From positions 3,168,001-3,232,000 of the forward strand of contig OY969763.1 of the NCBI GenBank assembly GCA_963702845.1: a stretch of 64,000 nucleotides of DNA. The letters are read 5' to 3'. The notes under the pieces are model-generated. The model ran no database searches. It was not told the origin of the DNA and worked only from the letters and a program-made list of their open reading frames with translations. This DNA comes from an uncultured Verrucomicrobiae bacterium. GTDB taxonomy: Bacteria; Verrucomicrobiota; Verrucomicrobiia; Limisphaerales; Palsa-1400. Position numbers and translations under genes: made by a program. Positions 36,579-56,200 of this stretch are shown in pieces; position 1 is the stretch's first letter; every line of letters starts with the position of its first letter.

Positions 36579-38160
36579 TTATTTCTCTTCGTGATATCCA
36601 GTCTCGGTATTGATCGACCAGAGATTATCTTTGGTCGAGATATTCTGGATGATATTGTCGACTGCCGTCATCGCTGTGAGCATTGAGTGGTCTTGATTGT
36701 TGTAGCGATGCATGCCATTGCGCCCGATCAGGAAAAGGTTTTCGAATCTGTCGGTGAAAGCGCGAATCTCGTGGAACCGATCATACTGTACCCCAATACG
36801 CCGGATACGTTTTAGGAACCCTTACAACTGTGCCGTCGAGGAAATCTTCCGCATCGATAAAACCTAGTTGGACCAACTCGCGCTTCGCGAACTCAATCAT
36901 CTTATCCCGGGGCAACTCCCACAAACTATCACCTTCGTTGCAGAAGTATTCCAAACCGATCCAAATCGTTTCTGCATTTTTCACCAGATATGGGCTCCAG
37001 TTATTGAAGACCTGTATCCGTCCTACTTTGACGTCTGGTTCCTGCACATAGATCCAGTTATCGGGAATCAGGTCTCCCCCATTATGGGTGGTTGTGTTCT
37101 TAACCTTCAGTTTTTTTAGCAGCAGACCAACAGTGATGAAGTCTCGATACACCAGGCCATTGGCAATCGTCTGGATTTCTCGAGGAGCCGAGTCCTCCAT
37201 GCATTGGATAAGATCCCGGACCGGCATCGACGAAAAAAAATAATCTCCCGCAACGGAATTTTGTGTCCCGTTGACGATATCAGTGACTTGCAGCGAACCG
37301 ACGCGTGCGCCATTGCATTCAATGTGAGATGCTTTCTGGTTAAAATGAATCTCGCCGCCGCGCTTTATCACCTCGTTAGCTACTTCTTCCCAAAGTTGCC
37401 CGGGGCCGAACTTCGGATATAGAAAACGCTCGATGAGACTCGTCTCCGTTGACGATTGCGCGATGGAACTGTCGCGAGTGAACGATTTTTTTGATGCATC
37501 TTTCAATGTCGACCAGACGGACAAACCTTTGATGCGTTGGGCCCCCCACTCTGCTTTTATCTGATGGCAAGGCACCCCCCAGACTTTTTCGGTGTAATCC
37601 TTGAAGAACGTTTCGTAAAGAACGCGACCAAAGCGGTTGATGAAGAAGTCTTCCAATGAGCGCTCTGGCCTGATCGGCACCAGGCGTGCACGGATGTAGC
37701 TGGCAAGGATACGGAATACTCGAACTACCCCGAGGAGCCTCAATGTTTCGAAACTCAATGAGATGGGATATTTGAAAAATTTCCGCAGATAAAAGATTCG
37801 CGAAAACCTGCGACGCACCAGCATAACTTTGTCCGTCTGCTCCGGGTCAGGCCCGTTTTGGTTCAGGACAACGTCATGTTGCTGTTGTTGATACCTGATT
37901 GAGACGTTGCCATCCTCAATGCCGCCCTGTAGAGGCAAAATCTGGTCCCACCATTTCATCACGCGTTCGGATTTGGAAAAAAAACGGTGCCCGCCGATGT
38001 CCATTCGATTGCCTTTGTATTGAATTGTCCGCGCCAACCCCCCGACCCCTTCACCTGCTTCGAAAATGATCGGAATAATGTCTGTTCGTTGGACCAATTC
38101 ATAAGCCGCAGTCAAACCCGCCGGGCCCGCCCCAATGATGATTGCTCGCCGACGGCTCAT
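36579..38160 (-). CDS. FAD-dependent oxidoreductase (COG1232/UDP-galactopyranose-mutase-like); +1 frameshift at ~36786
   Basis: [22 protein letters not shown]; corrected tail YWGT-YDRF...[19 protein letters not shown]...YHEEK*. Confidence 0.88.
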
Positions 38161-40175
38161 TTCGATTGAACTCCAGATTTTTGTTCGTGCCGTGAAGCAG
38201 CGATCTCTTCGAGAGCTTCCTTTGCTTCTGATGCGCTCGGATTCAACCGTAACGCTTCGCGCAAATGTTTTTCGGCCTCTGGAAAGTTGTTATTCAATGC
38301 TAGCAATAACCCAAACTGCGTTTGTATATCCGGATTCCCAGGAAAGAGCTCAATGGAACGCGAGTAGTGGCCGATACCTTCATTAACGTGATTTAGGACC
38401 ACCAAAACCTTGCCCAGACACGCGTGGGCCAAAGCATTGTTCGGATTAATACGCAATGCCTCCCTAAACGCCTGGGCTGCGTCATCATTTTTACCTAACT
38501 TCTCATAGCAAACCCCCAACCCCGTCCGTGTGTCCGAGATTTCAGGGCCAAGTTCTACCGCGCGCAGGTAATGCGTCAACGCTTCCTCAAACCTACCTGC
38601 ATCCGCCAGTGAATGCGCCCAGTTGATTTCAGGGTTTGCCCAACGAGGTTTCAGTCGCAACGCGGCTTCAAATTCAGCTGCTGCCTCAGACATATGCCCC
38701 TTGAGCGCGAGTTCTGCCCCAAGATTGTTATGCGCATCGGGGTACGACGGAACAACACGCAATGCATGTTCAAAATGCTCTATAGCGTCTTTGTGCTGTC
38801 CTCGACGAGATTCGATAGACCCGAGCAAGTTGTGACCAATGTAGTTGTCGGAGCATGCCGTCACCATGCTGGTGTACAGTCGTTCACTATTTTCCCAAAT
38901 TCCTACCTGCTGCCTGCTCAATACGATCAATCCTGCCGTTACGGTAGCTACGATGGCGCCGGCAAAACTTGCGATCCACCGCCCCCCCGCGAGGAATGCA
39001 CCCGCACCCCAAATCATGGCGATAAGAAACCCGATGCATGGAATATAGGTGAAGCGATCGGCCTGAGCCTGCACGCCGACAGGAACAAATCCGATCACCG
39101 GCACTAGGGTTCCTAGAAACCAAAACCATCCAACCGCGATGAATGGTTTCCGGCGCAATCGCACCGCGACCAGTGTAACAGCTACCAGCAACGCAAACGC
39201 CATCCCAATATGGAACCAATTGAGAACTTTTGGCAAATCGACGCGAGGCGCAAGTTCGAACGGCCAAACTAACTCCCGCAAGTAAAGAACGTACGATGTT
39301 GCTACATCGCCAAGTCGCCCAAGATAGGAATAGGTTTGGACAGAATAAATATTTCCCTGCGTCCGTCCCAAACTCGATGCCACCACTGAGGTTACGGCAC
39401 TCATCACGAACAACGGGATCTTCTCGACTATCAGTCGTCCGAGAAGGCGTACAGCGTCTTTGCTCCCTCCTACAGACGTGTCAGAAGTTGTCGCCAAATT
39501 TCCGGGGAATCTTCGAAGAGGCCAATAATCCAATAAGAGTAAGACGAATGGAGCCGTCACCGCCATTGGCTTAGACATCAATGCTCCCGCATATAAAAGC
39601 AGCGTTGCGACGTAGTAAACCAACTTCGACTTCTTTACCCATGCTGCGTAACTCCAAATCGTCAGGAGATAGAAAAGAGCACACAGCAAGTCTTTGCGCT
39701 CTGCTACCCAAGCCACGGACTCAACGCGAAGCGGATGGACTGCGAAAAGTAGTGCCACAAACGCACTCCGCCATATCGCCCCAGTGAGAGACCGTAATAG
39801 AAAAAATAAAACAATGCTGTTGATTGCGTGCAAAACAACATTTACGAGATGATGGGGGCCGGCATTCAACCCAAACAGCTGCACATCCAAGGCGTGTGAC
39901 AGCATGCTCAGGGGATGCCAATTCGATGCAGCCGTGCCGGTAAAGGTCCACTTCACGGTTTCCCACGTCAGCCCCTGCTGGATATGCGGATTCGAGTAGA
40001 CGTATTCAGGATCATCGATTGAAACGAAATCGAAGTGAATGGTCGGCCAATAGATCACCCAAGTGCAACCAATCAATACCGCAACGATAAAAATGGGGGT
40101 AAAGACCGATGAACTGAAGATAGTCGGTTTGCGGTTCAAGCCGTGAAAAGCAAGGCTAGCAACAGCGTGTCTCAA
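38157..40175 (-). CDS. TMTC-like GT-C membrane glycosyltransferase with TPRs, paralog 2
   Basis: [31 protein letters not shown], TPRs; overlaps the oxidoreductase start by 4 nt. Confidence 0.88.
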
Positions 40176-40217
40176 ATCAAAGGTGATAATTAGGTTGCAC
40201 GTTACGCTGCCGTTCTA

Positions 40218-42056
40218 CTATCGCTTAATGCCCGCATTCTTCGATTGCTGCGCTTGCTCCAAACTCGCTTGCGCTTGCGCGTTCTGCGGATCGAGGCGCA
40301 ATGCTTCTTTAAATTGCGCGATCGACTCATCGTGCCGGCCCACCCGGCCATAGGCATTTCCAAGGTTGATGTGCGTTTGCGAATTATCGGGCGCGATCTT
40401 CAGCGCGGCTTGATATTCGGCGACGGCTTCAGGCAGTCGGCCGGTCGCGAATAGCAGTGTGCCTATATTATTATGGACGTGCGCGCTGTTGGGTTGCCGT
40501 TGGAGCACGGCCCTTAACTCAGCCTCGGCGTCATCCGGTCGGCCCACCGCGTTCAAGAGTTGAGCGAAATCTTCGTGCACGTTGCTGTTACCGGGATCCA
40601 GCTTGATCGATTCGCGATATAAACGAATGGCTTCGTCATAATCGCCGCGACGCATCACCGCATCGGCCAGGTTCGCCCAGGCCATCGGCGCGGCCGGATT
40701 TTTCCGCGCGTTGTCGCGCCAGAGCATTTCAGGATTTGCAAACAATCGTGCGCGCGCAAACGAGCCCGCGGCCAGCGCGCAGGTCAAACACACGGTCACA
40801 ACACCGAGATTGAACGCATCCCCCTGCCCTTTCGCCGACCGGGCCGATGAACAAGCGCGAACCAGCTGATGCACGACAAGGCCTATCACCGCCACAAGCC
40901 CGATCATCGGAAAATATTGTAAATGATCCGCAACTTGAGTTTGCAGCAGGTAGGAAATCGGTATGACGCCCAGCACCGGGATCGCCATCACGGTAAAAAA
41001 TAGAAAGCCGTAAAATGGAATTTTCCCGACGACCGTGTTTCGTCGCAACCCCCACAAAACCGCTAACCACACCAGCCACAGCAACAGTGGCAACCACGTG
41101 AGGAAATTTTTCAGGTCAATCTCCCAGTGCGGATAAATTGGCATCAGGTTGATCGGCAGCAAAATTTTGCCGGTATAGAACCAAAGCGCATATCCGCCAC
41201 CAAGCACCCTCGTCATGAAGGGCGCGATCTCGCCGGCCTCAACCGACACCATCGCGCGATGGTGTTGAAACCAAATGCCCGCCAATCCCGCCGCCAGCGA
41301 TAACAGAAAAAACGGAGCCATGCGCGCCAGGTCCGCTCTCTTTCGCCAGCCGACCATCGCCAGCAAACCAAACGGCAGCATGACCACGGAGATCTTGCTT
41401 AACAACGCACCTGCAAATGCCAGCAGCGCGCATGTATATATGGCATTATCCCATCCGACTGCTTTTGGACCATTCAGCACCGGACGCGCGCGCAAAAACA
41501 GCAACACCGAGGCGAGCGCAAGAAAGGTCGATAACGTGTTCTTCAATTCCGCGACCCACGCGACCGTCCCGACGCAGACCGGATGGACGCAGAAGATGGC
41601 AGCGGCGATTCCTGCGCCAGGAAGTTTCAATCGCCGCAGTATCCGCCAGATCAAGAAAGACGAGCCGGCGTGCAATAATAAATTCAACACTCGATATCCG
41701 CCCGGATTGTCGCCGAAGAAACGCCACTCGAACCAAAATACTGTCGACGTCAGCGGAAGATAATCCACGTCTTTGCCCGACCAAATCCCCAACAGACCAT
41801 CCGGGGCGCGCACCAGGGAGTTGTTCGAAACCATGATCGCATCGTCCCAGATGAACGGCCCCTTGATCGCCGGCGCGTAAATGATAAACGCCAGCGCAGC
41901 CAAAGCCGCGAGCGCGAACATCATTCCGGGAAATTCTGATTTGGCGGTTGTCTGGCGGGAAGCCACGGGCAGCCAAAGTAAGAACTTAGCTAATCGGCGG
42001 CAAGCAAATGCCGAGGCAATGCTCACCATCCGCAACCGGCGCAGGATTGCGACCAC
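40218..42056 (-). CDS. TMTC-like GT-C membrane glycosyltransferase with TPRs, paralog 3 (divergent subtype; start uncertain)
   Basis: FIWDD, YLPLT, HPVCVGTVAWVAELKN, ADHLQY, TPRs. Confidence 0.86.
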   Translation of the reverse strand: MVAILRRLRMVSIASAFACRRLAKFLLWLPVASRQTTAKSEFPGMMFALAALAALAFIIYAPAIKGPFIWDDAIMVSNNSLVRAPDGLLGIWSGKDVDYLPLTSTVFWFEWRFFGDNPGGYRVLNLLLHAGSSFLIWRILRRLKLPGAGIAAAIFCVHPVCVGTVAWVAELKNTLSTFLALASVLLFLRARPVLNGPKAVGWDNAIYTCALLAFAGALLSKISVVMLPFGLLAMVGWRKRADLARMAPFFLLSLAAGLAGIWFQHHRAMVSVEAGEIAPFMTRVLGGGYALWFYTGKILLPINLMPIYPHWEIDLKNFLTWLPLLLWLVWLAVLWGLRRNTVVGKIPFYGFLFFTVMAIPVLGVIPISYLLQTQVADHLQYFPMIGLVAVIGLVVHQLVRACSSARSAKGQGDAFNLGVVTVCLTCALAAGSFARARLFANPEMLWRDNARKNPAAPMAWANLADAVMRRGDYDEAIRLYRESIKLDPGNSNVHEDFAQLLNAVGRPDDAEAELRAVLQRQPNSAHVHNNIGTLLFATGRLPEAVAEYQAALKIAPDNSQTHINLGNAYGRVGRHDESIAQFKEALRLDPQNAQAQASLEQAQQSKNAGIKR

Positions 42057-42358
42057 TTATCGCCGACGCACTTCTATTTAGTCACTTGATCGCCCGCCGG
42101 TAGCTCCAGCCAAAAACGGCTGCCGCGATCAGGAGCTAGTTACTGTTGAGCTTTCAACCGTTTAGTGTCTTCGAGAATCGTGACACTGATCATTGTCATC
42201 ATAGCTCTCGTTGGCGCTTTCTGAGGGAACGGCCTTATGGGTTCGCGCCCCCGCCACTCGGGCCTTTCTCGGTGGAGAAAGGGTTTATGCAATGCGTGAA
42301 AACGCGCCGCTATATAACTCAAAACCTCAAACAATTTGTGTGGGACAGAGGATGACGA

Positions 42359-44362
42359 TCACGCCCGTTCGCTCGACGGTCGACACAGGTTTCGTTGCAA
42401 CTGCTCGAGCACACAATGCATCTCTCGCGCTGAACCATACCGCTCCGCCGCATCCGGATGGCAGGCTTTCAATACGACGTTGTTCAACAGGAAAAAATCT
42501 GCCGGATCTTTCTCACTTAGTAATGTGGCAGATAATTCGGGAAACAACGCCGGGCTGCGCCCTGTGCTGATCACATAAAGGACCATTCCCAGAGCATAAA
42601 TGTCTGCTTGCGGTGTCCCCGGCCGTTCGGGTGCAGGCGGCATATAGCCGGGCGTTCCGACGAGCGTGTGTTCCTCGTTTGGCGACCGGATATAGGCGAT
42701 AAGTCCCAAATCAGCGAGTTTCGGTCGTCCATTCGCAAAGACAATGTTCTGCGGCTTGATGTCACGATGCGTCATCCCCGAGCGATGAATGAAATCGAGC
42801 GTATCAGTCAGAATTAATCCGATACGCAGGCACTCCTCAATCGGCAGCCGCCGCTGTGGTGCGCGCGCGCATTCCCGGCTCAAATCACGCGGCTTATAGG
42901 CATTGGGAAACTTCTCCCAGCTGGCTTCGAGCGAGTCTCCGAGTTCCATGACGTAGTAGAAATGGCTGTCGAATTTTTTACTAACGAACTCGACTCGCAA
43001 GAGACCGGAATGTTTATCGCAAATGTCGCGATAACGCGTGACGCCCTCAAACTCGCGGTCATAAGGTCCGGAATCGTTGTCGAACTTATCGAGACTAACG
43101 ACTTTGACCGCTCGCCATTCCCCCCGTTTATTTTGCGCCAGCCAAACGGTGCCATAAGCGCCTCGACCAAATGGCGGTTCCACCAACCGATAGCCGGGGA
43201 TCTCCGGAGCTTCAACAACTGGCGCGCGTTGATTTTCCGGCTGGATTGGTGTCGTCGCATCCGTGCGCGATGCGACCAATGTCCAGACAAAGGCGACGGG
43301 CAATTGTCCTGCAACCACCAGCAGCCACGGGAACCAATAATTTGTGGCAGAACTGAGCGCGATCGACAGAACGGTCACCAGCGCGGCGATGCAAATTGCA
43401 GAAACGCAGGCGAATCGTGTTCGCAGCTTCGGCAGACCCGCGCCGATCGCTAACGCAGCGAGCAGCAGGCCGATCCATTCCAAATACGCGGAACGACGCA
43501 GCCACTCGTGGTTCGTGAGGTTCAGAAACGATGCGATAACGATTTCTGTTCCGGCCGAAGATTCACCTGTCCAACGGCTATAAGGCGTCCGGAATTTATC
43601 GGGTTCATTGTCGGCAACGGACGTTTTCACTTGTGTGCCGATGAAAACGATTTGGCCACGAAAGAAATTCGCCGGCTGCTTGAGCGCGACACTGTAACTG
43701 AGGTGAGTCCATGGCGGTTCCTTCCCATAATAACGGAGCCAACGCTCATTTGTCGTATCGGGCAGTTTGGCGCCCAGCGCCCGAGCCGCCGTTTCTGCAA
43801 GACTCGGGTATGGGCCGGGCGCGGGGAATGGCCAATGATGTCGGACGATGTTGTCTGGATCAGGATCAAGCCATGCGACGCCCCAATTTGTCCCGGAAGC
43901 GCTGTAGAAAGGCTCCGTGGGAAGGACGGGGCGCACGCCGGCAAACTCGGAATGTGCCACCAGCGCTTGCTCGGCCATGAGCACGATATGCTGCTGCCGT
44001 CGCATCGCACGCGCGAGCGCTTCGTCTTTTTGCGCGTCGCGCGGCTGCCTAAAAAAGGAATCCATGACAACCATCGCGCAATGATCGTCCGCCAATTTGT
44101 TGAGCAGTTGTGCGTGTAACGCGCGGTCCCACGGTTCACCCCGCGTTTGATGGAGCGCGTCGTAAGACTCGTTGTCCATCATGATGAACGTGACGTTGTT
44201 GGTTGCGCCACGGTTGCCGAAGAAAAATGAGTAGTCGTAGCTGGCGTTAACGAGAGGATCGGCAAACGGAGCTTTCCAAAGCAGCAGGCCGCAAAGCGCA
44301 GTCAGCGCCAGTCCGATCAGCGATCGGACAGTTTTATTGCGCATCAAGCCGTGCGAATTCAC
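42359..44362 (-). CDS. CHASE2-domain membrane Hanks-type Ser/Thr kinase
   Basis: TM, PWDRALHAQLL/DPDPDNIVR/VFIG CHASE2 motifs, 3 TM, GRGAYGTVW, AVK, HRDIKPQN, DLGL, GTPGY. Confidence 0.92.
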   Translation of the reverse strand: MNSHGLMRNKTVRSLIGLALTALCGLLLWKAPFADPLVNASYDYSFFFGNRGATNNVTFIMMDNESYDALHQTRGEPWDRALHAQLLNKLADDHCAMVVMDSFFRQPRDAQKDEALARAMRRQQHIVLMAEQALVAHSEFAGVRPVLPTEPFYSASGTNWGVAWLDPDPDNIVRHHWPFPAPGPYPSLAETAARALGAKLPDTTNERWLRYYGKEPPWTHLSYSVALKQPANFFRGQIVFIGTQVKTSVADNEPDKFRTPYSRWTGESSAGTEIVIASFLNLTNHEWLRRSAYLEWIGLLLAALAIGAGLPKLRTRFACVSAICIAALVTVLSIALSSATNYWFPWLLVVAGQLPVAFVWTLVASRTDATTPIQPENQRAPVVEAPEIPGYRLVEPPFGRGAYGTVWLAQNKRGEWRAVKVVSLDKFDNDSGPYDREFEGVTRYRDICDKHSGLLRVEFVSKKFDSHFYYVMELGDSLEASWEKFPNAYKPRDLSRECARAPQRRLPIEECLRIGLILTDTLDFIHRSGMTHRDIKPQNIVFANGRPKLADLGLIAYIRSPNEEHTLVGTPGYMPPAPERPGTPQADIYALGMVLYVISTGRSPALFPELSATLLSEKDPADFFLLNNVVLKACHPDAAERYGSAREMHCVLEQLQRNLCRPSSERA

Positions 44363-44425
44363 CGTTGGTTGCGCGCATCATACCGGGGCATTCGAAAAAC
44401 GCATATTATAAATTCGACAATTTAG

Positions 44426-44454
44426 TTGAAAGAAAGAGCAGTTTTCCAACGTAT
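44426..44454 (+). promoter_or_regulatory. Putative ECF sigma promoter of the lipoprotein gene
   Basis: TTGAAAGA-N16-CGTAT, identical motif and spacing at 49655-49683; followed by 5' hairpin CCTGAGGCC...GGCCTCAGG (44461-44490). Confidence 0.7.
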
Positions 44455-44500
44455 ATCCCTCCTGAGGCCATCTAACAACCCGGCCTCAGGCAAAACAACA

Positions 44501-45214
44501 ATGAACAACCGAACAAAAATAATGATGGGAATCGCCGCAACAACAGCATTGCTGGTGTCATGCTCGAGCGATCAAACAACGACCAAAGCACCCGCCACCA
44601 ACAAGACAAAGGCGCCCGTTGCGCAGGTCAATAATGTTGAAACAGTCCATGTAGGTCAGAACGTCACCTTGCAGACGAAAACATCCGGAGGGGTGCAGTT
44701 CCAATGGCTTAAGAACGGCAATCCTATTCCGGGTGCAACGGACAAAACCCTGACGTTGACAGATGTTCAACCTGCAGATGGCGGCTTCTATTCTGCTGAC
44801 TACAAAAATAGCGGCGGCAAAAGATTTATGTCGCCGACAACAACTGTGCAGGTAATAGCATTGGACTCTGGTGTTCTTACCATCTATGCACCTCCGACCC
44901 CCGGTATGGGAGGCTCTGGGACAGGTTGTCCAGGCACCTACGTCGGCCTGGTCAACTACACGAAAACTATCGCCAACGGCTGGGGGTGGAAGCCCGACTT
45001 GACCACTAACATTCATACCGCCTGCGATCCTTATATGAGCGGCACGAAAGTTGAATATCTCGGGAAATCAGCTGATCGCGGTTGCGACACGAATTGCGTC
45101 ACGATCACGAGCAGTCCTCCTTCGAGCACCGCTTATCGTTTTACGATCTATTTTCGGACGGGACCTGTCCCCACCACGAACTACCCGATCCAGTTGCACG
45201 GTTTTCTCCCGTAA
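44501..45214 (+). CDS. Lipoprotein with Ig domain and Cys-containing C-terminal domain
   Basis: Lipobox LLVS-C; FQWLKNG.PIPGAT..TLTL..VQPADGGFY; four Cys in the tail. Confidence 0.85.
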   Translation: MNNRTKIMMGIAATTALLVSCSSDQTTTKAPATNKTKAPVAQVNNVETVHVGQNVTLQTKTSGGVQFQWLKNGNPIPGATDKTLTLTDVQPADGGFYSADYKNSGGKRFMSPTTTVQVIALDSGVLTIYAPPTPGMGGSGTGCPGTYVGLVNYTKTIANGWGWKPDLTTNIHTACDPYMSGTKVEYLGKSADRGCDTNCVTITSSPPSSTAYRFTIYFRTGPVPTTNYPIQLHGFLP

Positions 45215-45230
45215 TGGTTCAGAATTTCGG

Positions 45231-45267
45231 CCCGCGCCCCAGCGCGAAAGGCGCGTTGGGGTTCGGG
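45231..45267. terminator. Stem-loop between convergent genes
   Basis: CCCCAGCGCG-AAAGG-CGCGTTGGGG. Confidence 0.5.
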
Positions 45268-45306
45268 TTGTTCAGGAGTGGGGATAGTTTACTCTCCCCA
45301 CTCTCA

Positions 45307-48300
45307 CTAAAATGACAGGCGCAGCTGAGTCATAAGCGTGCGACGATGAGGGAATTCTTCGTGTAGGTTCAGCGGATTCAAATGATAATCCTGATCCGCC
45401 ACGTTAAGCAGTGCTAACGTAACTTCCGCACGACGATGTAAGAAGCGATAACCTCCAAATATATTCATCTGCCAAAAATCGTCACCGGGTAGATCAGGAA
45501 CATATCCCTCGTTGTTTTGACTGTTCCAAATGCCTTCGGCCAAGGCGAAAAACCCGCTCGGATGATTGAAATTACTGCTCAAACGGACTTGATGAAGCAC
45601 GGCTTCGTTTCGATGTCTTGGTTGAAAATTACCGAACGTGGTGTGATCGGGCATCTGATAGAAATTTTCCTGAAACGTTGCATCGCTGACCCGATATTGG
45701 GCACCGAACGACCAAAGCGTTCCGACCAACTGGTTCGCCGTGAACTGAAGACTATCTTCGGTATAGTCGACTTTGTCGCGCATGCCTGATGGCCTGGCGA
45801 AGTCGAACTCATCGATCAAATAATCGTAAGTGTTGACCAGCTTGCGGACATTCGAATTCAGGATAGTTCCATAAATCGCCAGATAGGTCCCCGTCGGCAG
45901 TTTCTGCTCGAGGGAGAGGTTAAATGTCTCGAACGTCGCTCCCGCGCTTTCAGATGCTACAGATTCCGGGATGATGCTGCGAAAGGCCTGGGGGAAACCA
46001 GCCACCTGCGAGGGCTCTATTTGCAGGCTTTGGTCAAGCTGACTCCCTGCAACTGATGTCGTGTAAGCGAAGCGAACCGTCGTCAACTTCAGTGGTGTCC
46101 AGATCAAGCCAGCCTTGGGCGAGAATCGCTCGATCGAACGCTCAATACTGAGCAGCGGGCTGCCTTGGACCGCTTCCGGGAACTTCATCACGTCATACGC
46201 CAGGCCCCCGTCCAACTGTAGGCACTCAAGAACATTCCAGTTGTGATATGCATAAAGGCTCAGCCGATCGAAATGGGTGTGAATATCCTGATCAGCGACT
46301 GGAATGACGAAGGCGGATGCTAACATTGAAGGATACTGCTCGAAGTTTTTCGTTTCCTGTTCCCCATGCTGAACACGGCAACCCAACACTGTGTTGTGCT
46401 CGGCTGTCTGCCAGATCTGTTGAAGCTCGCCAGAATACAGCGTCAGCCTGTTTGTGAAAATCACCGGAAAAAGCGAAATATTGTCAGCCGACACCAGCGT
46501 TGGTTTTCCAGACGGGTCGTCGGGAAAAATGCGAAGGTAAGAGTTAATGCCACCTGACAAGAGGCCAAAATCATCATCCGTGCGACTGGCCAGAAAAAGG
46601 GTGTGAACGCCAGGACTCCATTCGTGATGGTAACCCAGATACGCCGTCGGATGCTGCGTCTCAAACGTTTGATAACGCAATGGATTTTTCGGATATGTAT
46701 AGTATTGAAACAGGTTGCCGGTGCCAATGTCAGCATCAACGACCTGGCCAAACAGAGAATCTTTGGGAGTAATCTGTTCCTTCAATGTCAGATATAGGAT
46801 ACGCTGTTCGTTCTGTTGGTTGGATTGCTGACCGCGATCTGAAAGATAATCGGCTCCCACGTTGTAGCTGAACTTTTCAGAGATGCCATATTGCTCCCCG
46901 CGCTGTATCCACGCCCCGCGACTCAGGTATGTCGTGTCGGATGTGACCCCAAGCCTGTTCTGTTCAAAAAACCGCGAGTTTTGATTCTCAGCCAATTCTG
47001 GCGTGAGCGTTCCGGCGGATGCAGGCGAAAGCAAATTAGCGAGCAGATACTCGATTCGCTTGGGCGTCTCATAGCGGCGAGCTAGCGTGTCAGGGTCAAT
47101 CAATTCGGCGTAACTGTTCGCCAGAAACAAATGCGCCGAATAATTCCCGTAGTCGTAGTTGACGCTGCGTGAGGCTTCACGATAGGCCACGTCATTCATC
47201 CCGGCATCCCGATAAATCGATGCCAGGTTCGCGCTGCGCACCGCCTGGTCCTGGTCCAGCAGCAATTGCGAACGGTAAACGCTCAGGTTGTTGTTCAGCG
47301 CTTGCGATGTTTCCAGATCGCGGATGGCGTCGTTGATTTCGTTCTTGTTGCGTTTGACCAACGCCGAATACAGCCACGCCGTCGGATCATTTGGGTCAAG
47401 CTTCTTTGCCAAACGCAGTTCTTTTTCGGCGCGCGGATAATCGTTCACCGTCGCGTAAGCCTTGCCTAAATAACTGCGCAATTCAGCGCGTTGCGGTTCC
47501 AGCGCAGCCGCGACTAACAAGTCATCCTTACCTGCTTTGATGTCGTTCATCTGGATCTTGCACAAGCCGCGTCCGAGCCACGCGTTGGCCATCGCGCCAT
47601 CAACGGCAATCGCACGATCAAACCAATCGATTGCTTCGCATGGCTTATTTTGGCCCGCGAGAATAAAACCTTTCAGTGACAATGCTTCCGGATTGCGCGG
47701 CGTGAACTCGAAGCTCTTGTTCAAGGCTTCGAGGGCTTTATCCGTCCGGCCAAAGCTAAATTCCAACTCGGCCACGCGCGCCCATGCGAAACCGGACTCT
47801 GGCGACTGTTGTGCCGCGCGCTTTGCCAAATCCAATGCCGCTTTCAGTGAAACGTCCGGAATGGCGCGAGACTGTTCGTAATAAGAACGCGCCAGCAGTT
47901 CAGACGTGAGCTTCGTCTCGCCAGAAGCCGGCGGAGCCTGCCGCTTGACCGCTGCGACGAGTGTTCGCAATGAGACAGCCCGCGCATCCGCGCCTTGCAG
48001 GGAGGCCAAATCTACTTGTGCTTTTTCAACCTGTCCGACCCCAAGCAACAAAGCCGCATGATAAATCGACGCGCTATCGGACGCAGGGGGTTGGCTTGGA
48101 AAATTTGCCAGCGCCTGAAGCACGTCGCCGCGCCGATATTCAATCAACGAATCAGAAAACGTTTTCTGTTCGTCATTACTGAAGTTCAAATCTGCCGGGT
48201 CCAGCACGACAGGATAATACAACGCCCATTGCAAAAGATTGTTCGCGATGAATCCCGTGCCGCGCACCGGCTCCTGGCCGACAGCGGCAGTTGCTTGCTC

Positions 48301-48942
48301 GCCGTTGGTCAGCACCAAAGTCGAATGTTCGTTCCCAAAACTCACCTTGCCATCGATCACTGACACCGTGCTTCGCTCCGTCTCATTCACTGCCAGCACA
48401 AACTCTGTGCCTTCAACCCCCGCGATCGCACCGCGCGTGATCACACGGATGCGCCCGGGACGGTCGCGATGAAAGAACGACGTGATTCCTTTCAGCAAAT
48501 GCAGACCGTTGTCGGCTCCAGTCTCATGCGGCTCCAACACCTCCACTTCGGTCGACGCACCAAACGACATGACGCTTTGACCCGACCATCGTAGGGCGAC
48601 GCGGCTGTCCGGTCCGGTCCGCAAACGATCAAACGCATGCAGCCATTGGTTCGTTTGTGCCACCCGCCAGTCCGCGGTGTTTCGCGCCAGCACCTGGACC
48701 TTGCCTTGAATCTCGACGATCCGAATTTGATTGGTTGCTGGCGACTCTTTCGCCAGAGCGGTTGTGACGGTTGATAAAATCAATGCAGCCGCCGCGTACA
48801 ATAAAACACATCTGCGATTGTTGGTTGTCAATCGATGCCTGTTGGTTGTCGCATGCAAAACACATGCGGGGTTGAGCGGCGTAATTTGCCGACCCGCGAA
48901 GTTTTTGCAATCCAAACCTGCCCAACCGTTCTTTGACTGCAC
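45307..48942 (-). CDS. FecR-domain + TPR + TonB-dependent-receptor-like beta-barrel protein (true start probably ~48830)
   Basis: Signal peptide; DRLRTGPDSR, IT....AGVEGTEF, VSVIDGKV (FecR-like); TPR block; FSPKAGLIW, LLNVADQDY, terminal LRLSF. Confidence 0.88.
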   Translation of the reverse strand: MQSKNGWAGLDCKNFAGRQITPLNPACVLHATTNRHRLTTNNRRCVLLYAAAALILSTVTTALAKESPATNQIRIVEIQGKVQVLARNTADWRVAQTNQWLHAFDRLRTGPDSRVALRWSGQSVMSFGASTEVEVLEPHETGADNGLHLLKGITSFFHRDRPGRIRVITRGAIAGVEGTEFVLAVNETERSTVSVIDGKVSFGNEHSTLVLTNGEQATAAVGQEPVRGTGFIANNLLQWALYYPVVLDPADLNFSNDEQKTFSDSLIEYRRGDVLQALANFPSQPPASDSASIYHAALLLGVGQVEKAQVDLASLQGADARAVSLRTLVAAVKRQAPPASGETKLTSELLARSYYEQSRAIPDVSLKAALDLAKRAAQQSPESGFAWARVAELEFSFGRTDKALEALNKSFEFTPRNPEALSLKGFILAGQNKPCEAIDWFDRAIAVDGAMANAWLGRGLCKIQMNDIKAGKDDLLVAAALEPQRAELRSYLGKAYATVNDYPRAEKELRLAKKLDPNDPTAWLYSALVKRNKNEINDAIRDLETSQALNNNLSVYRSQLLLDQDQAVRSANLASIYRDAGMNDVAYREASRSVNYDYGNYSAHLFLANSYAELIDPDTLARRYETPKRIEYLLANLLSPASAGTLTPELAENQNSRFFEQNRLGVTSDTTYLSRGAWIQRGEQYGISEKFSYNVGADYLSDRGQQSNQQNEQRILYLTLKEQITPKDSLFGQVVDADIGTGNLFQYYTYPKNPLRYQTFETQHPTAYLGYHHEWSPGVHTLFLASRTDDDFGLLSGGINSYLRIFPDDPSGKPTLVSADNISLFPVIFTNRLTLYSGELQQIWQTAEHNTVLGCRVQHGEQETKNFEQYPSMLASAFVIPVADQDIHTHFDRLSLYAYHNWNVLECLQLDGGLAYDVMKFPEAVQGSPLLSIERSIERFSPKAGLIWTPLKLTTVRFAYTTSVAGSQLDQSLQIEPSQVAGFPQAFRSIIPESVASESAGATFETFNLSLEQKLPTGTYLAIYGTILNSNVRKLVNTYDYLIDEFDFARPSGMRDKVDYTEDSLQFTANQLVGTLWSFGAQYRVSDATFQENFYQMPDHTTFGNFQPRHRNEAVLHQVRLSSNFNHPSGFFALAEGIWNSQNNEGYVPDLPGDDFWQMNIFGGYRFLHRRAEVTLALLNVADQDYHLNPLNLHEEFPHRRTLMTQLRLSF

Positions 48943-48988
48943 TAGTCAATAAAATTGCAAAACACCGTGGGGTTGCGATACATAGTCC

Positions 48989-49612
48989 ATGCCCAATCAT
49001 CGAGACGAGTTAATTCCTACGCGCGCGTCGCTCCTGGCGCGTCTCAAGAATCTCGAAGACCACGACAGTTGGCAGGATTTCTTTGATACCTATTGGAAGC
49101 TCATCTACGGCATCTGCGTAAATCGCGGGCTGACCCCAACCGAGGCCGAAGATGTCGTCCAGGAAACCATGTGCACCGCGATGAAGTCGATGCCTGGCTT
49201 CAAGTATGATCGAAGCGTCGGCTCTTTTAAGTCGTGGCTGTTGAATATGGTCCGTTGGCGCATCGCTGACCAATTCCGAAAACGATCGGTCGTTCGAAAT
49301 TTACCCCAGGATACTGGAATTGATGGTTCCGATGGCCTTGACGAACTTGTCGATAAACAAACCGAAGATTTCCAGGCGGTTTGGGATCAACAGTGGGAAC
49401 AGGCGCTTTTCGATGCCGCCGTCGACAAAACCAGGCGTGCGATCGACCCGGAAAAATATCGGGTGTTTGATCTCCTGGTGAACCATCAATGGCCCGCCGC
49501 CAAAGTAGCCGAAAACCTCAAAGTCTCTGTTGACCACGTTTATCTCGTCAAACACCGCGTGACTCAGCTCGTCAAAGCGGAAGTCGAGAGGCTCAAGCAG
49601 CATGTGACTTAG
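48989..49612 (+). CDS. ECF RNA polymerase sigma factor
   Basis: TRASLLARL, WQDFFDTY, EAEDVVQE, GSFKSWL, region 4 AAKVAENL.VS...VY..KHR; no anti-sigma gene adjacent. Confidence 0.93.
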   Translation: MPNHRDELIPTRASLLARLKNLEDHDSWQDFFDTYWKLIYGICVNRGLTPTEAEDVVQETMCTAMKSMPGFKYDRSVGSFKSWLLNMVRWRIADQFRKRSVVRNLPQDTGIDGSDGLDELVDKQTEDFQAVWDQQWEQALFDAAVDKTRRAIDPEKYRVFDLLVNHQWPAAKVAENLKVSVDHVYLVKHRVTQLVKAEVERLKQHVT

Positions 49613-49654
49613 CCACAGGGGCTTGAGGTCGCGACATTAGATTTTCCAGATTTT

Positions 49655-49683
49655 TTGAAAGATTCTTTGGAAGTCAGCCGTAT
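49655..49683 (+). promoter_or_regulatory. Second putative ECF promoter, downstream of the sigma gene
   Basis: TTGAAAGA-N16-CGTAT. Confidence 0.65.
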
Positions 49684-49820
49684 CCATGGTGTGGGCGATC
49701 GCTGTGCGAGGCCGCATCGGTGCGAGCCCTGCTAACGGGAAGCGCGTTATCCACAAATTCGCAACCTCGGGTTGGCGTTTGCGGAGAACGTCTTATGTGT
49801 TGCAAATGGGGCTGGGGAAA

Positions 49821-49897
49821 CTGTTGTGCTTCGGCACAACAGCTCCCTCGGCATGGCTTTTGATCCATGCTACTTGGACAACGCCGCTGCCAGCGGC
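49821..49897 (+). ncRNA. Candidate structured RNA (three consecutive hairpins)
   Basis: CTGTTGTGC-TTCG-GCACAACAG; GCATGG-N8-CCATGC; GCCGCTG-C-CAGCGGC; no family recognised. Confidence 0.3.
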
Positions 49898-50235
49898 TCC
49901 GGTTGGAGAATACGTGAAGCGTCGTACGGCATGCGAGGCCGACGTTCGGCTCCTCTGCCGCTTTGGATTTCTTCAAACGCCCTATTAAATCGAAAAAACC
50001 AACAACCCGATAAAACGCCTGTTTCCACTACCCACCCGCTACCCCTCCACTATTTCTCGGAACCCAGATGTAACTCTGCCTGAATAAAACGGCGATAGTT
50101 CCCGCTTGCATAACGACCCAGCCTGTCGCGTCGAACCGGACGGGAGCCCGTCGAGGCGTCCGTGGGAAGGAAATCAGCAGTTGGTTGTTTCAGTCGGGCG
50201 GAATCAGTGCGAGAATCGCGGGCTGGATTGCCATT

Positions 50236-50946
50236 ATGAAAATTTCATCCGCCATATTTGATCGTAGCGCTCCGGATCTGGATTCGTGTCCCGACGAGTC
50301 GCTGGCGGAATTCGCCTTTATCGGGAGGTCGAACGTGGGGAAGTCCTCGCTGCTGAACATGCTCGCGGGCAAAGACGGTTTGGCGCGCGTATCTCCCATG
50401 CCGGGCTTCACCAAGCTGATCAACATTTTCACGATCAACAAGAAATGGCGGTTGGTGGATTTGCCTGGCTACGGGTTCGCGCAGGTGGCGCGGCAGGACA
50501 GCGACCGGTTCAACCAAGCGGTGCTCCGCTACCTGGAACACCGGAAGAATCTTTCCGGCGTCTTCGTGCTCATCGACTCGAGCGTGCCTCCGCAGGAAAT
50601 TGATATCGACTTCCTGAAGTGGCTCACGGGCCGCTCAATCCCGTTGGTTCTGGTTTTTACCAAGACCGACCGGATGTCGCCCTCAAAAGTGCAGGCGAAC
50701 ATCGCGACGTTCACCGATCGCATCGCGACGTCGTTTGAAGCGCTGCCGGAGATTTTCACATGCTCAGCAAAGACCGGGGCGGGCCGGAATGAACTGCTGG
50801 AAATGATCGACCAGTCGCTGGCCGCAGAGCCGCTCGAAAGTTCCGCGGAGACGGAGTCGGTGACAGACGGCGAGTCAGCCGTTCCCGAGAAAATAATCGC
50901 GCCCGTGAATCACCCCGAGCATCTGAAGCGCACGCGCCCGTGGTGA
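50236..50946 (+). CDS. engB: Ribosome biogenesis GTPase EngB/YihA/YsxC
   Basis: GRSNVGKSSL, VDLPGYGFA, FTKTD; start at ATG 50236. Confidence 0.95.
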   Translation: MKISSAIFDRSAPDLDSCPDESLAEFAFIGRSNVGKSSLLNMLAGKDGLARVSPMPGFTKLINIFTINKKWRLVDLPGYGFAQVARQDSDRFNQAVLRYLEHRKNLSGVFVLIDSSVPPQEIDIDFLKWLTGRSIPLVLVFTKTDRMSPSKVQANIATFTDRIATSFEALPEIFTCSAKTGAGRNELLEMIDQSLAAEPLESSAETESVTDGESAVPEKIIAPVNHPEHLKRTRPW

Positions 50947-51045
50947 GATTGCAAAGTGGGCGGTTAAAAACGACGTCGTATTGACAAATTGACTCCCCGT
51001 TGCAACCCGACGAGTCATCCGAACTGACGCCGATTGTTCTGCTTT

Positions 51046-52767
51046 TCACAACCGATGCGATCGCCTTTTTTGCTGCGGATGCAGAAACTTTTCCGCCTCC
51101 TCGGCGGCCTGTTGTTTTTGGTCCCCACTCATTTCAAATTCCAGCCGTTCTCGTACGGCGCGAACCCTTTTGTCGTTGCTTCCACTCACAATGAACCATT
51201 TAAGAGCTTCGACCTGGTTCGTTTCGACTCCTTCGCCCATAGCGTTCATCACTCCGAACAGGACCTGGGACGAAGCGTCCCCCTGGTTTGCCGCCTTCAG
51301 ATACCATTTCGCCGCTTCGACCTTGTTCTGTTCCACACCCTCGCCCTTGTAATAGGTGGCAGCCAGCGCCTGTTGGAACTTTACGTCACCGTGTTCTGCT
51401 GCCCTGCGCGTCCAGTAAACACCTTTGCTTGTATCCTTTATTATAACATCACCAGCGAAATACAGCGTCGCGAGCAGCTTCTCGGCTTCGATATCGCCGT
51501 GGTCGGCGAGCATCGTCAACCATCTCACACCCTCTTCTTTATTCGTTTTTACCCCCTCCCCTCGAAAATACAGGCCGGCCAGGACTTTCTGGGCTTGCGG
51601 ATCCCCTTGTTCTGCCGCTGTCGTAAACCAACGCAGACCCTTTTCAATGTTAGTGGCAACCCCCTCGCCTTGAAAATACATAGAGCCAAGCAATTTCTGC
51701 GAAGTCAGATCGCCTTGCTCCGCCGCTTGTGTGATCCAATCCGCAGCGAGACTTCTATTCCGGCCCACTCCTCCCTCGCCGTGAAAGTACATCGCGCCCA
51801 AAAGCGTGTACCTTGTAAGATCGGGTCGGTTGGAATTTAACGCGGGTTTTAACAAAAAAACCATAACGGCACAGATTCCCGATGAAAGAGCCCATCCGCG
51901 AATGCGAGTTAAGGCGTTCCGCTCGACATCCTGCAATGGCCGCGCCCCCAGATAGCCGAATATCAGGCCCGCAATCAGCCCGCCCGCGTGCGCAGCGATA
52001 TCAATCCCGCCGCCACCGGCGTGAGAATTGGAACCATTCACCGAATTGATGATGTTATTCGCCGCTTGATTTACGGCGGACAACAGGCCGTACAACACGT
52101 TATAAGCAATGAACACGGTGGCTCCTTTACTTACTGACGCAACCGTGCCGCTCGGCAGACCACCCTTCTCTCTCGCCATATATCCGAGCAGAGCACCATA
52201 AACTCCGAAGATAGCTCCCGATGCACCCGCTGACACTATCATCGGATTAAACCACAATGAGGTGAGGCTGGCCGCCAAACCGGACGCCAGATAAATCAGC
52301 AGGAAAAACCAGTTGCCGAAAAGTCTTTCCGTTAGCTTTCCAGCTTGAAGCAAAGCGTACAGGTTGCACGCCAGATGGACCACGCCTATATGAAGGAAGC
52401 AACTGCTCAACAAACGCCACCACTGATGGTTCGTCACTGTCAGGGGACCAAAATCTGCCCCCCATGCTATCAATTTTGCTATCGACGGACTGAATATCGT
52501 TTGAGCATCCACCGATACGAGCAGGAACAAGATCACATTAAGCCCGACTATCGCGGGTGTAACCCATGCCCTTGGGGTGACGGCCGCGAGCGAGCGCATG
52601 AACTCAACCTTGCTCTCATCGATAGCGATGATCTCGGGTGGGGAATCAGAACCTTTGGCACCTTTGTTCGAGACCGGCGCTTCGGACTTAAACTCGCTCG
52701 TGCCGCACTCGCGGCAACTCAGAGTTGAATCGTCATTCTCTTTCCCGCACCACGTACAGATCTTCAT
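51046..52767 (-). CDS. Zn-ribbon + rhomboid intramembrane serine protease + Sel1-like repeats
   Basis: CTWCG...CRECG; WWRL, H....HL..N, GASG, AHAGG; about six Y..GEGV...W...AAEQG repeats. Confidence 0.92.
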   Translation of the reverse strand: MKICTWCGKENDDSTLSCRECGTSEFKSEAPVSNKGAKGSDSPPEIIAIDESKVEFMRSLAAVTPRAWVTPAIVGLNVILFLLVSVDAQTIFSPSIAKLIAWGADFGPLTVTNHQWWRLLSSCFLHIGVVHLACNLYALLQAGKLTERLFGNWFFLLIYLASGLAASLTSLWFNPMIVSAGASGAIFGVYGALLGYMAREKGGLPSGTVASVSKGATVFIAYNVLYGLLSAVNQAANNIINSVNGSNSHAGGGGIDIAAHAGGLIAGLIFGYLGARPLQDVERNALTRIRGWALSSGICAVMVFLLKPALNSNRPDLTRYTLLGAMYFHGEGGVGRNRSLAADWITQAAEQGDLTSQKLLGSMYFQGEGVATNIEKGLRWFTTAAEQGDPQAQKVLAGLYFRGEGVKTNKEEGVRWLTMLADHGDIEAEKLLATLYFAGDVIIKDTSKGVYWTRRAAEHGDVKFQQALAATYYKGEGVEQNKVEAAKWYLKAANQGDASSQVLFGVMNAMGEGVETNQVEALKWFIVSGSNDKRVRAVRERLEFEMSGDQKQQAAEEAEKFLHPQQKRRSHRL

Positions 52768-53268
52768 AAATACCGGTATACACAGCCCCCGGCGGTTGGC
52801 GATTGGTAATGGAAAGACCGATAACAGTCCGTCCCGCCGAGATCAAGGCTCAACCGTTTTCCGATAACCAAGCGTCTTATTGATGCGCCACAAAAATGAT
52901 AGATGGCATGAATGTTCGCGGGCGTGGAACGAAAGCTCTGCGACCACCAGCCTATGGGTAACCACAAGGAAAGTCCTGACTTTCAAGTTTGCGCGGAGCC
53001 AGTCGCAAGCAAGCTTTCACCCAAGCTTCAACACTAGCAGATCAAACTGGCCTTCACGAGCAATGAGCGAGCAGCGACAGAATTGTGGGCGAATCCGCGG
53101 AAACTGTGTAGCTACGTCTTGCAATTTTATCTGAAATATCCAAATCTCTTCCTGTCAATCAGCTCTGCGGTGCAGGGTTCGTACGACCGACCCACTTGCT
53201 ACCACTTTCAACAATCATGCGGATTCGCCGACCAGAACCTGTTCCAACAATTTGCCTCTCGGCTGAGC

Positions 53269-56200
53269 TTACGGAGACTTCAGTCGAAAAAACCGCATCC
53301 CGTTTGTCGCGGGAATCGTCATTGAGAGTTCGCTCGCGTTGGTGGTTGTGGTTTGCGCTACCGAGGTCCAGGAATTCGTTTCAAGAGTAGTGCTTTCTTC
53401 CAGTGAATAGCAGCGCGCACTCGCTGGCCACGAGACGACTATGAATGCATTCGAGCCCACCACCTTGAGCAATGGCGAAGGAGTGAGAGGATCAACGTTG
53501 ACCACGCGGGTCGCGGTCGAGCTGTTGCCGGTAATGTCTTGCGCGCTATAGGTCAAGGTGTAGGCCCCAGCAACGCTGGTATCGACTGTTCCGGTGGTGG
53601 TCACGCTCACGATGCCAGTGCAGGCGTCATCGGCCGTTGCACCTGCGTCTGTGTAGACGGTGAACTGGCAGACGCTTTCAGGGCTGTTGCCAGCGACCGT
53701 AATCACAGGAGTGGTCGTGTCGTTGACCGTCACAGCGCGGGTCGCGCTGGAGGTGTTACCGGAGGCATCCGTTGCGGAATAGGTCAAGGTGTAAACACCA
53801 GGCGTATTGGCGTTCACTGAACCGGTCAAGGTCGCGGTCGTCAGTGTCTCGTCGCAACTGTCGGACGCGGTCGCTCCTGGATTGCTGAAGCTTCCATGGC
53901 ATTCGACCGTGCTCGGCCCAGCGTTGATCGTCACCACGGGTGCTGTCGTATCGGACACGGTCACCACGCGAGTCGCCGTGCCTGTGTTGCTTGAGGCGTC
54001 AGTCGCTGAATAGGTCAACGTGTATGTGCCAGGTGTATTGACGTTCACTGAACCGCCGGACAACGTGGCGGTCGTTACACCAGCGTCACAAGTATCCGAC
54101 GCCGTTGCGCCAGGATTGCTGAAGCTCGTATGGCACTCCACAGTTGTAGGGCCGTCGTTGATCGTAACGACCGGAGCGGTGCTATCCGAAACTGTGATCG
54201 CGCGAGTAGCGGAACCACTGTTGCCGGACGCGTCGGTTGCCGTGTAGGTCAACGTGTATGTGCCGGGAGTATTGGCGTCGACTGAACCGGTGAGGGTCGC
54301 ATTAGTGACACCAGCGTCACAAGTATCCGACGCGGTCGCACCGGGGTTGCTGAAGCTGGTATGGCATTCCACTGTGGTTGCACCGGCGTTGATGGTGATT
54401 TCCGGCGCGGTTGTGTCCGTGACTTGAACAGTGCGAAGAGCGGAGGCGGTGTTAACGTTGTCCGAGGCAGTGTAAGTCAACGTATATGTACCAACCGTAT
54501 TCGTGTCGAATGAGCCGGTGATCACGATGCTGGCGGTCACATCGCCCGCGCATGCGTCTGACGCCGTCGCGCCCAATTCAGTATAAGCAGTGTGACATTC
54601 AACCGTTACCAAACTTGCGCCGGTAAGAGCGATGCTCGGAGGAGTTGTATCGACGACATTGACAACGAGCGTGGCCGAGCCGGTGTTGCCGGACGCATCC
54701 GTGGCGGAGTAGGTCAACGTATAGGCGCCGACGACGTTTGGATTCACTGAACCGCTCGTAACAGTCGCCGTCGTAACAGCCGCGTCGCAAGCGTCAGACG
54801 CCGTCGCTCCAGGTGCGCTAAACGAATCATGACAATTTAGCGTCAGCGGATTGGAACCAGAGATGGAAACAACCGGCGCGATAGAATCAGACACTGTCAC
54901 CACGCGAGTAGCTGTCCCTGTGTTGCCGGATGCATCGGTGGCCGAGTAGATCAGGGTGTAGTTGCCGGGCGTATTGACGTTGACCGAACCAGAAAGAGTC
55001 GCGGTCGTCACGCCAGCATCGCAAGCGTCAGACGCCGTTGCGCCAGGATTGGTGAAACTGGTATGGCATTCGACCGTGGTCGGGCCAGCGTTGATTGTAA
55101 CCACAGGCGCGGTGTGATCCGACACTGTCACGACGCGAGTAGCCGTGCTTGTATTGCCGGTCGCATCGGTCGCCGAGTACGTGAGGGTGTAAGTCCCAGG
55201 TGTGTTGGCGTCCACTGAACCGGACAGGGTCGCGGTGGTCAGAGCGGTATCGCAGTCGTCAGAAACGGTTGCACCAGGATTGGTGAAACTGCTGTGGCAT
55301 TCGACCGTTGTCGCACCGGGGTTGATTGTAACCACAGGAGCAACGTTATCCGAAACGGTAACAACCCTTATCGCCGAGCCAGTGTGCCCGGAGGCATCGG
55401 TCGCCGAGTAAGTCAACGTGTAGGTGCCCGGCAGATTAACGTTCACTGAACCGGAGAGACTGGCAGTGACGCCAGGATCGCACGCATCAGAGGCGGTTGC
55501 GCCAGGATTGCTGAAGCTGCTATGGCATTCGACGGTGGTCGCACCTGGGTTGATCGTAACAACGGGAGCGATGTTATCGGAAACTGTCACCAAGCGGAAC
55601 GATGTCGCGGTATTGGGAACCGAGTCGCTTGCTGTGTAGGTAATCGTGTAAGTCCCGGGAGTGTTCGCGTCAACAGCACCAGTGGTTGTGACACTGATCG
55701 ATCCCTCACAAGCATCCGTCGCTGCAGCGCCAGCATCGGTATATGAGGTGTGACATTCAACAGTCGAAACCCCCGCGTTCTGGGTAATGACTGGCGCCAA
55801 CGTGTCAACCACGGTAACGGTCGCAACGAAACTGGTAATGGAATTGCCAAAGGCGTTTGTGGCGATAACGAAGTAAGAACCGGCGTTTAGGGCGCGCGAA
55901 TCAGGGAAAGGCAGCGCGGCATTGGTGGCGTCAGTGATCACCGTAGAAGCATTTGTATCACCTTGATACCATTGGTAGGCGATGTTCGTGGTTCCAGCAA
56001 CGACAACACTCAACGCGTTCGACGTGCCGCAATTGAATGCCTGATTGGTCAAGTCAGTTGTGAACACAGGGTCAACAACTTGCAATGTCGTCCCCGCTGC
56101 ATCGGTGTTGGCGCTGCCATCGGTGGTTGTCAAATCGACAGTGTAAACACCTGCATCAGCGGCCATGACGGCGGCGAGGGTCAGGTTCGCGCTCTGGGAT

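Follow-up and report, generated by a model that had tools for sequence, protein, structure and literature searches.

A candidate signalling route from an outer-membrane barrel protein through a CHASE2 kinase to an ECF sigma factor in a Verrucomicrobiae bacterium

Background

FecA/FecR/FecI cell-surface signalling relays information from the outer membrane to an extracytoplasmic function (ECF) sigma factor with the help of a FecR domain. How could such information reach an ECF sigma factor where the FecR domain belongs to an outer-membrane barrel protein and no anti-sigma gene adjoins the sigma gene? The question is raised by positions 42359..49683 of a 64,000-nt stretch (the window) of contig OY969763.1, from an uncultured Verrucomicrobiae bacterium. 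Here the open reading frame (ORF) calls give two divergent gene pairs, one for a CHASE2 kinase and a secreted protein and the other for the barrel protein and the sigma factor.

The reading that we favour, and that we hold to be somewhat better than an even chance, is that a surface cue passes from the barrel through the CHASE2 kinase to a phosphorylated ECF, which then switches on the gene of the secreted protein along with a small number of others. The barrel would sense the cue at the cell surface, and its periplasmic part, composed of FecR and tetratricopeptide repeat (TPR) domains, would switch the CHASE2 kinase. The kinase would phosphorylate and activate the ECF, and the activated ECF would transcribe the gene for the secreted immunoglobulin-like (Ig) protein, with a few others, from TGAAAGA-N15/16-CGTAT promoters. 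The observed basis consists of the domains, gene order, co-conservation, motif enrichment, kinase motifs, lack of a neighbouring anti-sigma gene and conserved Ser/Thr residues; each physical step of the relay is what we infer from it. In what follows, the genome of origin is G000, relatives carry other G numbers and individual loci carry L numbers.

Results and discussion

Four genes in two divergent pairs

The kinase gene (42359..44362, minus strand, 667 aa) encodes an inner-membrane protein with CHASE2 (residues 23-305) and Pkinase (398-605) domains by Pfam. Of its four hydrophobic segments, one precedes and three follow CHASE2, which places CHASE2 outside and the kinase domain inside. The Hanks catalytic motifs are all intact (GRGAYG, K420, E437, HRDIKPQN, DLG and GTPGY), and HRDxKxxN is found in 81/81 related ORFs. 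Pfam detects no cyclase domain in this protein; its output domain is the Ser/Thr kinase. Opposite lies the gene for the secreted protein (44501..45214, plus strand, 237 aa), the predicted target of the sigma factor.

In the second pair, the NsrA-like outer-membrane barrel gene (45307..48942, minus strand, an ORF of 1211 aa) encodes one N-terminal hydrophobic segment, a FecR domain (105-200), TPRs (~367-527) and a C-terminal TonB_dep_Rec_b-barrel domain (738-970), and its last residue is Phe. Judged from the sequence, translation more likely starts at TTG 48831, directly 5' of the hydrophobic segment, than at the ORF end at 48942. The ECF gene (48989..49612, plus strand, 207 aa) matches Pfam Sigma70_r2 and, above the cut-off, the ECF superfamily profile TIGR02937. 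An initial annotation had described these four genes, their order and their domains, and the ORF coordinates and profile searches agree with it; it had also called the ECF free of an anti-sigma factor, and the ORF list of the window contains no anti-sigma-like ORF flanking the gene.

Sequence searches found no relatives of solved structure for the CHASE2 domain or for the barrel and FecR parts. The matches listed from a pattern search of all GTDB genomes were mostly unrelated kinases and give no estimate of range; the closest full-length relatives among them are titled Verrucomicrobiota. Proteins with a cyclase-like domain, CHASE2 and a Ser/Thr kinase fused in one chain also occur, at L016:5235-8054 (G050) and L020:6035-8923 (G055).

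Co-conservation in related genomes

The core comparison set comprised 61 genomes, namely G000 and 60 close relatives; all proximity counts within it come from fragmented contigs and non-independent kin. Of these genomes, 43 had a barrel match, 33 an ECF match and 9 a match to the secreted protein (one by its Ig part only). A kinase match lay within 10 kb of 56/75 family ECFs (rough chance expectation 1.2) and a CHASE2 match within 6 kb of 46/82 barrels (rough chance 0.6). Nineteen CHASE2-kinase fusions were found, 14 with a barrel within 1.5 kb, 13 with a family ECF within 6 kb and 10 with both. The four-gene order of the window recurs in 4/60 close relatives, G004, G009, G024 and G014, the last with two of the genes frameshifted. 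Three of the genes are present in G002, up to the contig end; in G034 the two divergent pairs are separated by 52 kb; and the trio forms a single re-ordered operon in G050 (kinase-ECF-barrel) and G057 (barrel-kinase-ECF).

Outside this set, CHASE2-kinase fusions were found in at least 85/401 sampled genomes of the host's order, a lower bound because just two candidates per genome were scored; in a phylum sample of other genomes, the CHASE2 profile had matches at E<=1e-60 in 2/200. We examined 80 further loci, being the best 91 of 112 fusion matches minus 11 already in the set. A barrel was present in 42 of them and a family ECF in 20, the two together in 18; an Ig gene was present in 8 and the full set of four genes in 6. 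Where at least 6.5 kb was available on each side (35 loci), the corresponding counts were 20, 14, 12, 4 and 4. A second ECF family occurs in 16/80 loci, and at 14/80 its gene is no more than 250 bp from the kinase; either ECF family is present at 26/42 loci with a barrel vs 9/38 without. In a kinase tree, the nearest labelled neighbour has the same ECF family for 42/45 labelled kinases, an agreement that can be explained by relatedness alone. At one locus without a family ECF, in G060, an ordinary ECF gene (L006:5788-6348) lies directly 3' of the CHASE2 kinase.

A promoter-like motif within the module

When upstream regions were compared by eye, TGAAAGA (or TGTAAGG)-N15/16-CGTAT was found 5' of the secreted gene in 7/9 loci. 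The window holds two copies, vs 0.03 expected. The first, a predicted ECF promoter of the form TGAAAGA-N16-CGTAT at 44427..44454 (plus strand), is 46 nt 5' of the ATG of the secreted gene; the second (49656..49683, plus strand), likewise a predicted promoter, is 3' of the ECF gene, points away from it and is the top-scoring site of the genome. The predicted start of the secreted protein is ATG 44501, not TTG 44426, because the upstream TTG overlaps the -35 box.

Across the 61 genomes, 88 exact sites were counted vs 17 for a reversed control. A family ECF lies within 8 kb of 21/88 sites (rough chance 0.5), a count weakened by the presence of 4 of the 21 among the discovery sites and by the non-independence of the relatives. 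Four sites stand directly 5' of a family ECF, as for an autoregulated ECF, and in G008, G018 and G020 others stand 5' of the barrel gene; neither the barrel gene nor the ECF gene of the window has the motif 5' of it. Scoring of G000 with a matrix built from 45 sites in other genomes ranked five sites, where each control spacer length gave ~0.8. The window contributes two of them, another lies behind the paralogous ECF described below, and the remaining two are divergent sites near 1.979 Mb. This placement predicts that the motif is read by the present sigma family.

A TTGC(A/C)A box at 48955..48988 (plus strand), 34 nt 5' of the ECF start and present by eye in 10/15 loci, may be a housekeeping-type promoter giving a leaderless ECF message. 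Since the ECF gene has no promoter of its own family and apparently a housekeeping-type one, its control would be post-translational.

The motif is also found 170-320 nt 5' of receiver-histidine kinase hybrid genes in L003, L011 and L014. At G000:C1:1977652-1981488 (L237:3652-7488), the two divergent sites flank genes of 249 aa and 449 aa. The former resembles C1-type peptidases (an atlas lead, 20% of one cluster, the clusters being mostly viral); the latter has no Pfam or PDB match, and may resemble glutamic peptidases.

Conserved Ser/Thr sites and region 2.2 of the sigma factor

In 32 family ECFs, including that of the window, T11, S/T14 and T60 are invariant, with S/T79 kept in 30/32 and S/T27 in 29/32. 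Twenty further members retain T11, R12, S/T14 and T60 without exception, which brings T11-x-x-S/T14 together with T60 to 52/52. Of 16 ordinary ECFs of G000, 14 have Asp at position 12 and 8 an acidic residue at position 14, so that T-R-x-S/T stands in a normally acidic stretch; this comparison was made by eye and anchored on L15/L16/L19, the aligner placing the ordinary ECFs one column off. The second kinase-adjacent ECF family, of which 1/2 tested members pass TIGR02937, has T-x-W-S/T at the same N-terminal place. In the loci examined, planctomycete ECFs beside kinases carry T-x-x-S-L-L, and their scores on the window-family profile are 80-146 bits. The best candidate phosphosites would be T11/S14 in the first helix, followed by T60 and S79, with the CHASE2 kinase as the presumed direct enzyme.

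Both sequences singled out by the initial annotation, EAED and LTPT, are present in the ECF. The LTPT threonines were rejected as the phosphorylation site for want of conservation: T51 is kept in just 5/20 further members, and T49 is S/T in 23/32. Nor does the linker contain a fixed Ser/Thr akin to EcfK T106; many members are T-rich there, and the linker of the window ECF is acidic.

The acidic region-2.2 motif, E52-x-x-D55-x-x-Q58-E59, is intact in the window ECF. Among the 32 members, E52 and D/E55 are each found in 32/32, and position 54 is Q in 19, E in 8 and F in 5. As it retains this core-binding motif, the ECF might be active by itself and have to be restrained. The kinase could supply the brake, by docking on the TRxS/TL helix or by inhibitory phosphorylation, with the signal freeing the ECF, and an N-terminal motif common to two kinase-adjacent families is what a docking site would lead one to expect. 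However, phosphorylation is described as activating in EcfP and EcfK, the two studied cases (PMC8999054, PMC13147305), and activation agrees with the replacement of acidic residues by Ser/Thr in the first helix; a braking kinase seems to us rather improbable.

The barrel protein and the input half

Barrels of this family are partnered with a CHASE2-cyclase, a CHASE2-histidine kinase or a CHASE2-Ser/Thr kinase, and barrel plus CHASE2 therefore form an input unit. Across 25 pairs, the distances of the FecR parts correlate with those of CHASE2 (Mantel r 0.83; 0.67 for the TPR part), which shows joint inheritance, not contact. In a quick-method tree, ten barrels from divergent kinase loci form one clade with support 100, cutting across families. 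Complex prediction with barrel residues 66-640 and the CHASE2 domain (score 0.00, controls not folded) speaks neither for nor against a direct contact between the FecR/TPR part and CHASE2, which is presumed in the proposed relay.

A plasmid search returned 24 records, mostly rhizobial. In Ensifer, a 1216-aa FecR-TPR protein is encoded directly 5' of a CHASE2 cyclase. This protein is matched by the family profile with E 4e-27 for FecR, 5e-18 for the TPRs and a weak 6e-6 for the C-terminal part. These unannotated rhizobial records probably represent nsrA/cyaK. The homologue of S. meliloti B399 (L235:6941-9226) stops at 761 aa, shorter than the Ensifer copy.

The TPR-plus-barrel layout would also suit a channel for export or surface display of the secreted protein, with the CHASE2 kinase and ECF monitoring or inducing export. 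The large secreted Ig-repeat genes that often flank these barrels, and the motif 5' of the barrel gene itself in the three relatives named above, agree with such a role, to which we give a slim chance. What stays constant beside the barrel, however, is CHASE2 and not cargo, 47/65 CHASE2 matches having a barrel within 6 kb, and a receptor role is described for the rhizobial type of homologue (PMC7529298).

The secreted protein

The secreted protein consists of an Ig_2 domain (64-143, Pfam) and a 115-residue C-domain with two invariant cysteines and no Pfam family. It has ~30 close relatives, several without the Ig part. The C-domain was modelled as a jelly-roll sandwich at a predicted local distance difference test score (pLDDT) of 91. 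In structure it comes closest to the subtilase Tk-SP, whose C-terminal domain heads the matches (Z 8.4, root-mean-square deviation 2.5, 88 aligned residues), and next to collagen-binding and similar accessory domains. The model suggests a binding module; no function follows from a fold match. An atlas search with the C-domain gave no usable match, and Foldseek with the whole protein gave generic Ig matches only.

The initial annotation had made this protein a lipoprotein and the output of the system. The sigma-family motif 5' of its gene speaks for an output, and the window protein does have a lipobox (LVS-C21); lipidation as a family property fails, the lipobox being absent in four orthologues (G004, G009, G014 and G024). 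More speculatively, and on balance doubtfully, signalling would be free of anti-sigma factors, the ECF would be turned on by T11/S14 phosphorylation, and the induced jelly-roll protein would complete a feedback loop by coming back to the barrel, either as its ligand or as a co-receptor.

A paralogous kinase-sigma pair and the surroundings of the locus

G000 encodes a single barrel, two family ECFs and three CHASE2 proteins, namely the window kinase, its paralogue (62% identical) and a hybrid of CHASE2, PAS, histidine kinase and receiver domains. At G000:4530943-4533667, where no barrel or Ig gene is found, the paralogous kinase and its ECF, the latter 66% identical to that of the window, are arranged head to head with 65 bp between them. 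The pair is followed by the motif, a ~250-nt non-coding leader and a PurA-family gene (G000:C1:4530943-4534333; L001:8944-12334), and G002 has the same pair in an identical layout (L013).

By sequence homology, the window stretch 49688..49855 (plus strand) is a non-coding counterpart of this PurA-gene leader. No PurA ORF lies 3' of it, and it may be a relic or a small RNA with possible hairpins. Its folding is no better than that of shuffles (z -0.2 to -0.9), an Rfam scan of 41000-53300 gave no match at E<=0.1, and among 31 genomes it was found in G000 and G002 only. Slightly further on, at 49927-49970, is a short repeat of ~35 nt with 14 more matches genome-wide.

The module is flanked by TPR membrane proteins upstream and by a GTPase and a rhomboid-Sel1 protein downstream; none of these recurred in the related loci inspected. 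Upstream, 34482-42056 encodes a flavin oxidoreductase whose ORF has no obvious C-terminus, and three mannosyltransferase-like membrane proteins with TPRs. The regions 31517-34051 and 53269-59700 encode large secreted proteins containing Ig-like, lamin-tail and autotransporter-type repeats, of which the one at 31517-34051 appears to stop abruptly; large secreted Ig-repeat genes often flank barrels of this family.

Weighing the relay

Several observations count against the relay as proposed. With the region-2.2 acidic motif intact, the known reason for phospho-dependence of an ECF is missing, and T11 could be a plain helix-capping residue. Among the 35 well-covered kinase loci, 21 have no family ECF and 15 no barrel, and the Ig gene is a minority companion (at least 8/80 loci). 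G060 has the barrel, Ig gene and kinase, but the ECF beside its kinase is of the ordinary type and the motif is missing 5' of its Ig gene. Finally, the wiring of barrel, kinase and ECF may not be one to one, since G000 has one barrel for three CHASE2 proteins and two family ECFs.

The intact motif and the loci lacking a family ECF, together with the pairing of most family ECFs with kinases that have other sensor parts, are also what two loosely coupled modules would produce, the barrel and kinase signalling to another substrate and the ECF being active without phosphorylation or served by any of several kinases. This we think unlikely: kinase and ECF adjoin at the paralogous locus and in the re-ordered operons, the same slot is filled by the second ECF family in 14/80 loci, and sigma-family promoter motifs lie inside the module.

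Comparison with known systems

On the input side, the proposed relay most resembles NsrA with CyaK/CyaD1/CyaD2 and Clr of Sinorhizobium meliloti, where NsrA is described as an outer-membrane receptor that, jointly with CHASE2 cyclases, is needed for perception of a protein signal (PMC7529298, PMC13001267). Both systems have a ~1200-aa outer-membrane barrel and an inner-membrane CHASE2 receptor, which in the window's family are co-conserved. FecR and TPR homology, N-terminal in the window barrel, is detectable between the two, and the barrel part is weakly similar (E 6e-6). Unlike NsrA-CHASE2, whose output is cyclic AMP acting through a CRP protein, the window has no adenylate cyclase output or CRP-type regulator and ends in a Hanks kinase and an ECF. 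Clustering of CHASE2 with FecR is described in Campylobacterota and Burkholderiales (PMC9239204, PMC5192318).

On the output side, ECF43, with EcfP/PknT of Vibrio parahaemolyticus and EcfK/PknS of Xanthomonas citri, likewise has an adjoining membrane Hanks kinase and no anti-sigma gene. ECF43 activation is described as the restoration of charge in region 2.2, and other kinase-linked groups as keeping the acidic motif, unexplained (PMC8999054); EcfK is reported to keep one acidic region-2.2 residue and to need a linker site as well (PMC13147305). The window ECF shares the nearby Hanks kinase and the lack of an anti-sigma gene. Its acidic motif is not replaced, however, and where ECF43 has the third-position Thr, the window family has Q, E or F; with the motif intact, the window ECF is therefore not an ECF43. 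In addition, the ECF43 kinase is N-terminal with periplasmic TPRs, whereas the window kinase is C-terminal behind CHASE2, and the window system, unlike ECF43, has an outer-membrane partner.

ECF59, ECF217, ECF61 and ECF62 also have a kinase neighbour and no anti-sigma (PMC7826278 supplement). They are described as 100% Planctomycetes, the ECF59 promoter being given just as TC in the -35 region, and the portion of that supplement text available to us makes no mention of CHASE2 (PMC7826278); the ECF59 phosphosite is reported to be a serine (PMC8103513). In ECF59 and ECF217 the kinase is at +1, whereas that of the window is 4.6 kb off and divergent, and the closest relatives among the matches listed are titled Verrucomicrobiota.

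ECF267 (Sorangium, Chondromyces) likewise has a FecR-TPR protein and kinases near the ECF, and its FecR is described as a putative anti-sigma, at +1 and without an outer-membrane transporter (PMC7826278). By this analogy the FecR domain of the window could itself be the anti-sigma, which is highly improbable: it sits behind a signal peptide, has no cytoplasmic part and is fused to an outer-membrane barrel encoded at -1, and a family ECF is within 10 kb of just 13/82 barrels. FecA/FecR/FecI-type signalling (PMC9239204), for its part, has a separate inner-membrane anti-sigma, whereas in the window there is none and the kinase would bridge the inner membrane.

By analogy, then, the window system appears to be like NsrA-CyaK at its input and like PknS-EcfK at its output, and it lacks a defining feature of each. 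Synteny, the sigma-family motif and these two precedents, the first of which the initial annotation did not name, lend partial support to the relay that it proposed; neither LTPT as the site nor a family-wide lipoprotein finds support. Both halves, NsrA-CHASE2 and kinase-activated ECFs, are published. The joined barrel-CHASE2 kinase-ECF combination was not found in the literature searched, subscription journals lying largely outside that search. New here are the promoter-like motif, the barrel-less paralogous kinase-sigma pair and the invariant T11, S/T14 and T60 sites.

Conclusions

For kinase-linked ECFs that keep the acidic motif, the question of control raised in PMC8999054 becomes testable through a named promoter and invariant Ser/Thr sites. 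For CHASE2 sensing, the pairing of one barrel family with three output types points to the periplasmic part of the barrel as the input. If, as in the more speculative version, T11/S14 in the first helix is the switch, it would be a site new for ECFs, common to at least two kinase-linked ECF families of the Planctomycetes, Verrucomicrobia and Chlamydiae (PVC) group. If the relay is true, the locus would link the outer membrane to an ECF without recourse to an anti-sigma factor or to proteolysis.

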